Assembly: GCA_016699245.1 (NCBI GenBank)
Contig: CP064968.1
Span: 835,042-899,041, forward strand
Direction: 5' to 3'
From: Candidatus Kaiserbacteria bacterium
GTDB lineage: Bacteria > Patescibacteriota > Minisyncoccia > Phycocordibacterales > UBA918
Length of the DNA: 64,000 bases
The notes beneath the pieces are model-generated. The model worked only from the letters and a program-made list of their open reading frames with translations, was not told the origin of the DNA and did no database searches. A program made the position numbers and the translations under genes. Shown one piece after another: positions 14,398-16,709 of this stretch (positions are counted from its first letter, which is position 1; each line of letters opens with the position of its first letter).

Positions 14398-15480
14398 ATG
14401 TTCCCACAAATCAAAGACAGTATCTCTGTCTTATATCGAAAGGTTCGAGATACCTACGAAGTGAATTTTCTCTTCAATGCAAGTAGCGTAGTCCTCCCAT
14501 TTCACCTTAACAAGGCAGCCTTTGACTGCTTGCAGTATCTCGATGGCTTGCATTCCATTGAAGAAATTGAAGCGAAGTCAAATCTTCCAGTTGCTGAAGT
14601 AAAAAGATTGGTATTGGCTTTGCAAAAAAGTCGTGTGCTAACTACAAGAAAGCAACTGGCTGTTATTAAGCAAGATAGGTTCGCAACGCAGCGTAACTTC
14701 TTTGCGGAATTTGAGACAAGAACTCAATCTCGCGAAGTTATGCAAGATCGGTTGCATCAGGCACGGGTTGCCATAATCGGCTTGGGTGGCATTGGCACTT
14801 GGGTTGCTCAAGGTCTCGCTCTTGCAGGTGTTCGCAACTTCGTCCTCGTTGACCCTGATGTCGTCGAATTATCAAACTTAAACAGGCAGTGCGTGTTTAA
14901 TGTTGGCGACATCGGATCTTTGAAGGTTCAGGTGGCGGAGCAGAAACTTCGTACTACTGACCCTGAAATTTCAGTTCGAGGGGTCGTACGACGAGTTGTG
15001 TCAGTACGGGACTGCCTGGAGGAAATGAGAGATAGTAGCATAATCATCTCATGTGCAGATGATCCGAGCACCGATGCAGTGAATCGGATTGTTACCGAAG
15101 TTGGCTTTGAGCTGAACGTGCCTCATATTCTCTGCGGAGGATATGATGGTCATCTAAGCTTCATCGGGCCGACGGTCATTCCGGGAAAATCAGCTTGCTG
15201 GTTCTGTTATGAGTACGCGCTTGATAGACAACTTCATCGGGCCGAGTATCAGCAACTTGCCGTTACTAATGCGCATAGCAAAGGAGGAAATATCGCTGCA
15301 ATCAGTGCGATAACAGCAAACTATCATGTGCTGGATGCACTGAAGGTCATTACCGGTTTCTTGAAGCCGACGATGACCAATAAGGCTGCGGAGTTGGATT
15401 TTCGTACCTACGATATCAACTTCCGTAAATTCAGAAAACGTCACACATGCCCATATTGCGGGCAGAAAAGAGGTGAGTAA
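14398..15480 (+). CDS. RRE (PqqD-like)-fused E1/ThiF/MoeB-like adenylyltransferase, MccB/PaaA-like
   Basis: N-terminal roughly 90 aa fits the PqqD-like winged-helix pattern (LNKAAFDCLQYLDGLHSIEEIEAKSNLPVAEVKRLVLALQKSRVL). E1 nucleotide-binding motif VAIIGLGGIGTWVAQGLALAGVRNFVLVDPDVVELSNLNRQ. C-terminal zinc motifs CWFC...CPYCG. SD 'taggagt' before the ATG. Confidence 0.75.
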   Translation: MFPQIKDSISVLYRKVRDTYEVNFLFNASSVVLPFHLNKAAFDCLQYLDGLHSIEEIEAKSNLPVAEVKRLVLALQKSRVLTTRKQLAVIKQDRFATQRNFFAEFETRTQSREVMQDRLHQARVAIIGLGGIGTWVAQGLALAGVRNFVLVDPDVVELSNLNRQCVFNVGDIGSLKVQVAEQKLRTTDPEISVRGVVRRVVSVRDCLEEMRDSSIIISCADDPSTDAVNRIVTEVGFELNVPHILCGGYDGHLSFIGPTVIPGKSACWFCYEYALDRQLHRAEYQQLAVTNAHSKGGNIAAISAITANYHVLDALKVITGFLKPTMTNKAAELDFRTYDINFRKFRKRHTCPYCGQKRGE

Positions 15481-16709
15481 TGAGTATTGATTCGTATGTC
15501 GTATCAAAGCACCTCATGCTTGAAAGTGAAGATGGTGAGAATGGGGTTGTGATACACAATACTCGGACTGGCCATCGTCTTTCTTTGACTGAGGAATCTG
15601 TGAAGGTTCTTGAGGTTTTCCGTAGTGCCAAAAGCACGCAAGAAGCCGCAAGAGAGCTCGGTGTAGCTGAAGGTGAACTGTACGAGGAATTCCTGTCAAT
15701 CATTGTTGCGTTTTCCGAAGCTTTCTTTCTTGTCTCTGTGACAGAGGGGAAGGCTGAAGAACCACTGTCTGTCGATAAGGACACCTTGTTTGTCAGTGCG
15801 CAAACACCCTTCGTGTACTGTCCTTCAGTCGACGTGGAGAACCTTGAAGAAGGGACAATTGTCGTTGCTGGCGTAAGTCTCGATCAGGCGACGACCGGTA
15901 ATCCTGGCACTCGTCTTGGTCCTGACCGGCTTCGCGAAGTCTCGACAAAGTTTCTTGCATACGAGCGAGATATCTTCACAAGGAAAAGTCGGGGTTGGCA
16001 CAACGCAGATCTCGGTACAGTAATCCTTGAAGGTGTTCCGTTTGGAGACCTAGGCAATGTCGCGTATCGAACCGGTGAGCCTTTAACTGCAGTGTACGAA
16101 CGTTGCTACCGAGGTGCTCTGTTGTCACAACAGAGTGGTGCGCTCCCTGTGTTTATTGGGGGAGACCACTCAATTTCCGCTCCGCTTATCCGTGCGTGCG
16201 CAGAAGTCCATAGGGAAGTTGTCATTATCCACTTGGACGCACATACAGATATGGGTGAGTGGGAAGTTGGTTCTGAACATCATCATGGAAACGTCATGCG
16301 GCGAATGTTGTATGAAAACCCGACCGTGTGTCTGTTGCAGTTCGGGGTACGTGGCTTTGCCGGAGCTCCGCTTGGTGAAGTTCGTTGTGAGACGACAACC
16401 CAAGCAAGCATTGAAGAAGATATGGAACACGTGCTGCAAACTCAAGTACCAAAGGGGAAGAAATGTTACATTAGCCTCGATGTTGATGTGATTGATCCTT
16501 CCTTTGCGCCTGGGACAGGCACGCCAGTTCCGCTTGGGATGAACCCAAGAACTCTTCTGAAATTGCTCCGAGCGGTGGCAGAAAATAACCAAATTGTCGG
16601 CATGGATGTTGTTGAATTGAGTCCATCGCTTGATAGAGATGACATGACAACCAGCTTGGTCTTCCATGTTCTCATGAAAGTGTTGTACTGGATCACCTTA
16701 AAAAAGTGA
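15480..16709 (+). CDS. RRE (PqqD-like)-fused arginase/agmatinase-family ureohydrolase; candidate peptide arginase (Arg to Orn)
   Basis: N-terminal roughly 100 aa is PqqD-like (GVVIHNTRTGHRLSLTEESVKVLEVFRSAKSTQEAAREL). All binuclear-Mn motifs are present: GGDHSIS, IIHLDAHTDM, SLDVDVIDPSFAPGTGTP and MDVVELSP. Start overlaps the stop of the E1-like gene by 1 nt, suggesting translational coupling. Confidence 0.7.
   Translation: MSIDSYVVSKHLMLESEDGENGVVIHNTRTGHRLSLTEESVKVLEVFRSAKSTQEAARELGVAEGELYEEFLSIIVAFSEAFFLVSVTEGKAEEPLSVDKDTLFVSAQTPFVYCPSVDVENLEEGTIVVAGVSLDQATTGNPGTRLGPDRLREVSTKFLAYERDIFTRKSRGWHNADLGTVILEGVPFGDLGNVAYRTGEPLTAVYERCYRGALLSQQSGALPVFIGGDHSISAPLIRACAEVHREVVIIHLDAHTDMGEWEVGSEHHHGNVMRRMLYENPTVCLLQFGVRGFAGAPLGEVRCETTTQASIEEDMEHVLQTQVPKGKKCYISLDVDVIDPSFAPGTGTPVPLGMNPRTLLKLLRAVAENNQIVGMDVVELSPSLDRDDMTTSLVFHVLMKVLYWITLKK

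Follow-up and report, generated by a model that had tools for sequence, protein, structure and literature searches.

What is an arginase-fold enzyme with a peptide-recognition domain at its N-terminus doing in an ultra-small bacterial genome, and on what substrate could it act? This question is raised by a gene in a 64,000-nucleotide stretch of Candidatus Kaiserbacteria DNA (contig CP064968.1, positions 835,042 to 899,041, forward strand), which we refer to as the window. The gene encodes a ureohydrolase-type catalytic domain preceded by a predicted recognition element (RRE) of the kind found in enzymes that mature peptides made on the ribosome and modified after translation (RiPPs). Our analysis indicates that this RRE-arginase is probably a tailoring enzyme of a RiPP-type cassette conserved in Patescibacteria (Candidate Phyla Radiation, CPR), which comprises a short precursor peptide, an MccB-like RRE-ThiF protein, the RRE-ureohydrolase itself, a C39 peptidase and sometimes a GNAT acetyltransferase. 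The most likely interpretation is a new RiPP-type pathway in Patescibacteria, in which leader-guided conversion of arginine to ornithine would be combined with adenylation of the peptide C-terminus. Feature coordinates are collected in Table 1; related loci and proteins carry L and P numbers.

The catalytic half of the protein was examined against family profiles, residue by residue, and by structure prediction. The Arginase family (PF00491), its sole Pfam match at E ≤ 0.01, covers residues 127-401 at E 6.6e-61 (206.7 bits; cutoff, 22), well outside anything expected by chance. A previous sequence-only reading of this DNA had quoted four metal-ligand blocks and proposed an intact binuclear metal site. 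All four blocks occur in the translation exactly as quoted, within FIGGDHS (G227-S231), HLDAHTD (D253-D257), SLDVDVIDP (S332-P340) and MDVVELSP (M375-P382). Read codon by codon, the six canonical ligands are H230 (16167), D253 (16236), H255 (16242), D257 (16248), D334 (16479) and D336 (16485), together with the guanidinium-binding glutamate E379 (16614). In an alignment of 61 homologues with identities down to 26%, the six ligands (GGDH, DAHxD, DxD) are invariant and E379 is at least 90% conserved, which bears out the proposed site. Because these residues are both present and conserved, the domain carries every sequence hallmark of an active ureohydrolase. The metal may be Mn or Ni, since the nearest folds include those of two Ni-dependent enzymes, guanidinase and metformin hydrolase. 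The full-length AlphaFold 2 (AF2) model, with a mean predicted local distance difference test score (pLDDT) of 91.9 and a predicted template modelling score of 0.83, has the alpha/beta/alpha arginase fold, and its best Foldseek match is agmatinase 1wog (E 1.2e-26, target TM-score 0.85).

The closest solved relatives, by both sequence and fold, are agmatinases 1wog and 7lba, proclavaminate amidinohydrolase 1gq6, guanidino-acid hydrolases, guanidinase 9fek and metformin hydrolase 8ryi. The five structures named by code share 21-31% identity with the window protein at target TM-scores of 0.68-0.87, and their metal ligands are identical. The domain scores 174.0 bits against the NCBIfam agmatinase equivalog TIGR01230, just below the cutoff of 174.3, and misses the cutoff of PRK02190 (168 versus 302). 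The peptide arginase OspR (8brp) is absent from the best 60 of 73 matches by sequence and the best 50 by fold. An OspR-type (PF12640) identity is ruled out, the protein having the PF00491 match and canonical motifs instead of EEH(N/H)EAF / DXHXD / LDIDLDYFSC. Full-length homologues form about 90 clusters at 90% identity, are 395-437 amino acids long and 30-89% identical to the window protein, and those clusters that are named all come from Patescibacteria, Parcubacteria or Paceibacterota.

These scores raise the possibility of a housekeeping agmatinase for polyamine synthesis, with a regulatory winged helix at its N-terminus and neighbours that are incidental. The near-threshold equivalog score would fit, and "agmatinase" is the name that some databases give to homologues. 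The phylogenetic placement that the sequence-only reading had left to be settled speaks against it. A tree of 189 catalytic domains, built by neighbour joining, unites all 90 RRE-fused proteins in one clade (59/100 bootstrap), which also takes in L009 (itself fused), L012 and one fragment. Although this bootstrap support is moderate, it suggests that the RRE-fused enzymes form their own group within the agmatinase-like ureohydrolases, apart from ordinary agmatinases.

Arginases have no counterpart of the first ~110 residues, and neither Pfam nor NCBIfam matches them. In the AF2 model they adopt the PqqD topology (beta-beta-beta(-beta)-alpha-alpha-alpha), with strands at residues 5-8, 12-18, 22-27, 33-36 and 84-87 and helices at 38-46, 53-60 and 66-80; modelled alone, the domain has a pLDDT of 79. 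Searched against the PDB with Foldseek, it matches the MccB clamp first (E 8.8e-4), followed by TigE, TbiB1, PqqD, ThcOx, SuiB, CteB, PbtF and MadB, so that nearly all of its best matches are experimentally defined RREs. A profile (A1) built from 49 N-terminal domains of the RRE-arginase family matches, over its whole length, residues 1-93 of the radical S-adenosylmethionine (rSAM) RiPP maturase TigE (8vpo, E 3.2e-5); it also matches, weakly, the lasso-peptide RRE TbiB1. Among 1.84 billion representative proteins, A1 found 157 at E ≤ 1e-3, mostly RRE-arginases of ~400 amino acids. The remainder include standalone proteins of 85-130 amino acids and rSAM-SPASM enzymes with the domain at or near the N-terminus (for example P0166, P0195 and P0165; whole-library E ~1e-6 to 4e-5). 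The suggestion in the sequence-only reading that the N-terminus is RRE-like is thus supported by fold, by 8vpo and by the rSAM-SPASM RREs (E ~1e-6), whereas one part of its proposed profile search, against Pfam PqqD, gave no match for the window protein. Other helix-turn-helix models in Pfam gave no usable match on this domain. Together, the predicted structure and the profiles point to a PqqD-type RRE at residues 1-~90; the domain matches peptide-binding RREs, not the DNA-binding regulators that a housekeeping agmatinase would call for.

The gene immediately upstream encodes a putative ThiF-like adenylyltransferase (TLAT), named in the database "TOMM precursor leader peptide-binding protein". 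Among PDB entries it matches MccB best (E 3e-27 over residues 98-357), with ThiF and PaaA behind, and it keeps intact motifs for ATP/Mg and Zn (GLGGIG, NLNRQ, CADD, CWFC, CPYC). The N-terminal domain of this protein is homologous to the RRE of the arginase by profile-profile comparison (hhalign 94.7%, E 5.8e-8, 86 columns); the same comparison using the single ThiF N-terminal sequence against A1 was uninformative. The two genes overlap, as the sequence-only reading had noted, but the junction is TAATG with one shared nucleotide (stop TAA at 15478-15480, start ATG at 15480-15482) and not the ATGA that it had described. A Shine-Dalgarno-like stretch, AGAGGTGAG, precedes the overlap.

This coupling is not peculiar to the window. 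By gene coordinates, the pair overlaps by 1-4 nucleotides in loci whose arginase is 53% (L001/L002), 51% (L086), 47% (L087), 33% (L003) and 30% (L004) identical to that of the window; in L001, L003 and L004 the overlap is 4 nucleotides, as judged from coordinates alone. The two proteins also have parallel lists of homologues: in at least 33 cases, a 90%-identity cluster of one can be paired with a cluster of the other whose longest contig is equally long. In P0137, ThiF, RRE and arginase form a single open reading frame of 775 amino acids (L118 378-2705), with no stop codon at the junction. Separately, a 37%-identical ThiF homologue, P0360, is found on 20 contigs and labelled Candidatus Woesearchaeota, a DPANN archaeon; either gene exchange between ultra-small bacteria and archaea or faulty binning could account for this.

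A candidate substrate is encoded next to the pair. Upstream of the ThiF gene and divergent from it lies a short, unannotated peptide gene. An alternative in-frame ATG at 14239 would give a 52-amino-acid peptide; the ATG at 14227 has GGAGG 5 nucleotides before it, and homologous peptides starting MQQ are 45-48 amino acids long. A peptide with the same C-terminus is present in every locus with readable flanks that holds the enzyme pair (the window, L001, L003, L004, L086, L087 and L118), although its position varies: on the same strand upstream in L001, L003, L086, L087 and L118, divergent in the window, and downstream of the arginase in L004. The 18 distinct peptides (29-55 amino acids) align without gaps across their last 26 residues. 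Numbered back from the C-terminal residue as 0, the leader motif K(V/L)xIxPL occupies -23 to -17, at a fixed distance from the C-terminus, with L-17 invariant. In the core, R-7, G-6, R-3, R-1 and A0 are invariant, while position -5 is Leu in 14 and Val in 4, position -4 is Arg in 17 of 18, and position -2 is Arg in 11 and Pro in 7. The variant at -4 comes from L118, where a precursor at 174-323 ending ...YMRGLHRRRA (His at -4) precedes the fused P0137, which is followed by C39 and GNAT genes.

The co-occurrence of peptide and enzymes was examined from both sides. As a negative control we used 80 loci (731 kb) from a contig scan with the full-length alignment A2 and metal-motif patterns; these hold ordinary agmatinases, with only L009 and L011 fused. 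The C-terminal motif of the peptide was found nowhere in the 731 kb of ordinary agmatinase loci, nor in L005 and L088, two RRE-arginase loci that lack ThiF. Conversely, a blind scan of metagenome DNA with a pattern for the C-terminal codons alone returned 27 loci. The leader motif is present in 16 of these, and in all 14 of the 16 that have any flank, ThiF, the RRE-arginase or both are encoded. The remaining 11 loci are matches that arose by chance in GC-rich DNA, and four of them have Trp in place of the stop codon. A protein-database search with the 52-amino-acid reading returned four clusters, the query itself not among them, which indicates that gene calling seldom picks the peptide up. 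With the strict co-occurrence with the peptide, the overlapping coupling to ThiF kept across 30-100% identity and the single-chain ThiF fusion, a housekeeping agmatinase becomes barely credible.

A C39 peptidase gene and a GNAT gene make up the rest of the cassette in the window. The database lists a "C39 family peptidase" (QQR64752.1) adjoining the arginase (QQR64751.1); its QRDASACG and GHLSVL segments align with the peptidase domain of ComA, and the catalytic Cys and His are kept. A C39 gene adjoins the enzyme pair in most loci, among them L001, L002, L086, L087, L089, L092, L094, L095, L098, L099, L103, L106 and L118. In the precursor, counted from Gly-6, hydrophobic residues at P4, P12 and P15 are conserved, a pattern that presumably recalls a double-glycine leader. 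The GNAT protein has SpeG spermidine/diamine N-acetyltransferases as its nearest solved relatives; a GNAT gene is likewise adjacent in L004/L104, L098, L100 and L118 and absent from L001, L003 and L086. The synteny is therefore not that of a housekeeping gene, one of the points on which the sequence-only reading had made its proposal depend: a coupled RRE-ThiF gene, C39, GNAT and an Arg-rich mini-ORF lie alongside.

Table 1. Positions of the cassette features in the window (position 1 is the first letter of the window)
Feature	Position	Strand	Details
RRE-ureohydrolase open reading frame	15480-16709	+	ATG start, 409 amino acids; identical to NCBI QQR64751.1, labelled "arginase family protein"
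PqqD-like winged helix-turn-helix domain, predicted RRE of the arginase-fold protein	15480-15743	+	residues 1-88; AF2, Foldseek and profile matches
Ureohydrolase (arginase/agmatinase-fold) catalytic domain	15858-16682	+	residues 127-401; Pfam PF00491
MccB-like ThiF-type adenylyltransferase (TLAT)	14398-15480	+	360 amino acids; NCBI QQR64750.1
RRE-like N-terminal domain of the ThiF protein	14398-14682	+	residues ~1-95
ThiF domain	14734-15450	+	residues 113-351; Pfam ThiF E 9.9e-42
Candidate precursor-peptide gene, unannotated	14081-14227	-	48 amino acids, MQQTVPSTASTPQKPPESAAIDLRKVSITPLKRRHNDVYMRGLRRPRA; C-terminus ...YMRGLRRPRA
Promoter-like site upstream of the peptide gene	14283-14311	-	TTGACA-17-TATCCT; consensus scan, 10/12 matches, pattern match only
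Intrinsic-terminator-like hairpin	14030-14061	-	14-bp stem and T run; begins 20 nucleotides past the peptide stop codon
Standalone C39 (double-glycine-type) cysteine peptidase, candidate leader protease	16763-17254	-	163 amino acids; Pfam Peptidase_C39 E 4.1e-12
GNAT (Acetyltransf_3) N-acetyltransferase, accessory member	17266-17793	-	175 amino acids; Pfam E 3.3e-28

An E1-type adenylation domain, a small protein with a conserved C-terminus and a cysteine protease are also what a ubiquitin- or Pup-like tagging system would offer. In such a system the Arg-rich peptide would be activated by the E1-like enzyme and conjugated, the papain-like C39 enzyme would deconjugate it and the arginase would tune the tag; the E1-E2 models of PADLOC indeed match the ThiF domain. 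Yet these matches concern the generic E1 core only, there is no E2 or JAB partner, and a peptide of 29-55 amino acids is too short for a beta-grasp fold. Both enzymes bear RREs typical of RiPP maturases, and the nearest solved E1 relative is MccB, not ubiquitin E1. We therefore consider a protein tag highly improbable. A known defence system was likewise rejected as an identity for the locus, since PADLOC recognised none of the genes apart from these generic E1-core matches to ThiF.

If the peptide is the substrate of a RiPP-type cassette, as we propose, its maturation could proceed as follows. The homologous RREs of both enzymes would dock on one leader motif, K(V/L)xIxPL, which keeps a constant 17-residue distance from the C-terminus. 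The ureohydrolase would hydrolyse the guanidinium of at least one invariant Arg in the core R-G-(L/V)-R-R-(P/R)-R-A, giving ornithine and urea, and the ThiF-like enzyme would adenylate the carboxylate of the invariant C-terminal Ala. A nucleophile would then capture the activated carboxylate, the most attractive candidate being the delta-amine of the new ornithine, which would close a C-terminal lactam. The C39 peptidase would cut off the leader, possibly after the invariant Arg-Gly, which would leave the hexapeptide (L/V)RR(P/R)RA, and the SpeG-like GNAT may acetylate a primary amine for tailoring or self-protection.

Both central reactions have precedents. Conversion of Arg to Orn is an established RiPP modification (PMC10028609, PMC12703449, PMC12257519), and its placement on this peptide is suggested by the genomic context. 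The ThiF-like RiPP enzymes GrcB and EnfB are described in a 2025 review as adenylating the C-terminus of their precursors, which is then captured within the molecule or amidated (PMC12250964). Carried to its end, this scheme would describe a CPR-specific RiPP class that recruited an RRE-guided agmatinase-type enzyme, joined Orn to the C-terminal Ala and, after C39 cleavage at Arg-Gly, released an Arg/Orn-rich hexapeptide bearing an Orn lactam. We put this full version forward tentatively and think it rather doubtful; if true, the Orn-lactam linkage would be one not described for ribosomal peptides.

The agmatinase-like character of the catalytic domain, seen in the TIGR01230 score and the top fold match 1wog, admits a different order of events. 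The ThiF enzyme might ligate a free guanidino-amine, such as agmatine or arginine, to the C-terminal Ala, and the RRE-agmatinase would then turn the attached guanidine into a primary amine (a putrescine amide, for instance), with the Arg residues of the peptide serving recognition only. The invariant C-terminal Ala and the resemblance of the GNAT to diamine/spermidine acetyltransferases are in keeping with this, and EnfB can, according to the same review, amidate an activated C-terminus with available amines (PMC12250964). The likeness to agmatinases does not separate this scheme from direct action on the peptide, however, because an Arg within a peptide likewise has neither its carboxylate nor its amine free. 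In addition, the scheme leaves unexplained why the last eight residues keep four Arg and the Gly with little or no variation, the cassette has no amine-supplying gene, and one step more is needed than in the direct model. We regard amidation by a free guanidino-amine as unlikely.

A further variant rests on the same context as direct Arg-to-Orn conversion. Here, an Arg guanidine would itself attack the adenylated C-terminus to form an acyl-guanidine ring, which the ureohydrolase would hydrolyse or remodel, for example to an acyl-urea and Orn. Ureohydrolases do take decorated guanidines, and the top fold matches include proclavaminate amidinohydrolase and metformin hydrolase. The chemistry is without precedent, though, and the canonical active site with E379 suits an unsubstituted guanidinium, which makes this route very unlikely in our judgement.

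Several points weigh against the interpretation of the RRE-arginase as a tailoring enzyme acting on this peptide. The entire family is known here from sequence and predicted structure alone. Its closest kin are agmatinase, guanidino-acid, guanidine and metformin hydrolases, with no proven peptide arginase among them; because these kin act on small molecules, the true guanidino substrate could differ from peptidyl-arginine. The bootstrap support for the fused clade (59/100) is modest, and the Pfam PqqD model (PF05402) leaves the window protein unmatched and recognises one of the 49 family members, at E 0.008. The single-chain fusion is known from one 5-kb contig. No exporter was seen in the cassette. 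Finally, C39 proteases usually cleave at Gly-Gly, Gly-Ala or Gly-Ser; the precursor contains none of these sites, its sole invariant Gly being that of the R-G at -7/-6.

Two kinds of RiPP arginase have been described, and the window protein differs from both. OspR and its relatives FlmR and OhkR (PF12640) share with it the binuclear-metal ureohydrolase superfamily, a location in RiPP clusters and a precursor with conserved Arg, and the reaction they catalyse, peptidyl-Arg to Orn and urea (PMC10028609, PMC12703449), is the one we propose here; free Arg is no substrate of the OspR type. OspR, however, carries EEH(N/H)EAF / DXHXD / LDIDLDYFSC motifs and a dimerisation domain, has no RRE and is promiscuous towards core sequences (PMC10028609), whereas the window protein belongs to PF00491, with GGDHS / DAHTD / SLDVDVIDP and an N-terminal RRE. 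PbsE, of the biphenomycin-like pbs pathway, is likewise a RiPP arginase, with a strict substrate context and a multi-enzyme pathway that processes Orn further (PMC12257519). It differs in having TPR repeats instead of an RRE, in a cluster without a ThiF-like enzyme but with MNIO, B12-rSAM and cupin partners, and in its hosts, which are Actinomycetota and Bacillota (PMC12257519). Agmatinase SpeB and its kin are single-domain housekeeping or catabolic enzymes of ~300-380 amino acids, to which the window protein adds an RRE of ~110 amino acids with linker and a peptide-modification cassette.

On the adenylation side, the closest comparison is with MccB of microcin C and with the TLAT RiPPs made by the pantocin A enzyme PaaA, GrcB and EnfB. 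The upstream partner of the RRE-arginase is built like MccB, its closest solved relative, with an RRE "peptide clamp" and a ThiF domain with Zn-binding CxxC pairs; a short precursor is its neighbour, and a GNAT is often close by, as is MccE. Microcin C chemistry requires a precursor ending in Asn for its succinimide and N-P bond; all 18 precursors here end in Arg-Ala, and this chemistry itself is excluded because none ends in Asn. The cassette differs from the TLAT RiPPs in that a second RRE-bearing enzyme would share the leader. The available portion of the 2025 review, which covers four TLAT RiPP classes (microcin C, pantocin A, GRC and enterofaecin), makes no mention of an arginase (PMC12250964). 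Targeted full-text searches turned up no description of a cassette combining a ThiF/MccB-type adenylyltransferase with an arginase, agmatinase or ureohydrolase, or of a CPR version. The cassette thus appears to be a variation on RiPP biosynthesis, peptide arginase and TLAT themes, with a catalytic domain that was probably recruited convergently and a sharply defined putative substrate.

Arg-to-Orn conversion has so far been tied to OspR (PF12640) and to TPR-arginases, and an RRE-fused PF00491 enzyme would represent a second, convergent and leader-dependent route. If true, this would make it an attractive programmable tool for placing ornithine in peptides. Through its MccB-like adenylyltransferase partner, the pathway would also give the ThiF-like RiPP enzymes a fifth branch with a chemistry of its own, and the cassette would be among the few conserved specialised-peptide loci of ultra-small CPR genomes. 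Since the substrate motif is sharply defined and only three or four small genes are involved, the proposal can be tested in Escherichia coli without culturing the hosts.

More distantly related RRE-arginases are found in conserved contexts of a different kind, in which ThiF is missing. In L088, an RRE-arginase of 33% identity (2234-3421) without a ThiF partner is accompanied by three tandem, near-identical open reading frames of 38 amino acids (5294-5923; MDERTSEFIVEGAASSVELVDFSEVEALEESFAMSRSS), which end ...FAMSRSS with a single Arg near each C-terminus. Acyltransferase-like, M50-like and ketosynthase genes are further neighbours, and a separate RiPP or lipopeptide cluster may here employ an enzyme of the same kind. 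Outside the CPR, RRE-arginases P0090, P0093 and P0091 without ThiF lie in L116 (4555-8669), L117 (6001-9127) and L005 (7001-8804), where unknown proteins of ~175 and ~140 amino acids follow the arginase (in L005, the first one only). A JmjC_2/Cupin_8 hydroxylase comes next in two of these three loci, L116 and L117, and this module recalls the arginase and Orn-hydroxylase logic of the biphenomycin pathway. These loci suggest a wider family of ureohydrolases that tailor peptides under the guidance of an RRE.

Beside the GNAT gene lies a tRNA-Arg(GCG) gene at 17938-18010 (minus strand), and the peptide core is rich in CGC/CGG Arg codons. This adjacency is not kept in nine related loci, so that membership of the tRNA gene in the cassette was rejected and its position is probably a coincidence. 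Further along on the minus strand, an open reading frame of 402 amino acids (18654-19862) matches carboxysome shell carbonic anhydrase weakly and partially, in its catalytic domain (Pfam E 1.5e-5; 39 bits in NCBIfam, where the cutoff is 241), which would be odd for a CPR genome. It is followed by an open reading frame of 188 amino acids (18087-18653) with no family match.

Finally, a family of repeats lies between a P-type ATPase gene and the peptide gene (13542-13984, plus strand). Rfam gave only a sub-threshold small RNA match on these repeats, and ARAGORN called no tRNA at default settings and, when relaxed, only low-confidence, intron-containing ones. The two copies of a 93-nucleotide repeat (13542-13634 and 13892-13984) are 87% identical, and each contains a 21-bp hairpin. 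The two copies of a 70-nucleotide repeat (13602-13671 and 13781-13850) are 77% identical and contain CACCAGGGATCGAAC, of which a diverged version is present in the second 93-nucleotide copy. Read as its reverse complement, this element resembles the T-arm and 3' acceptor half of a tRNA.

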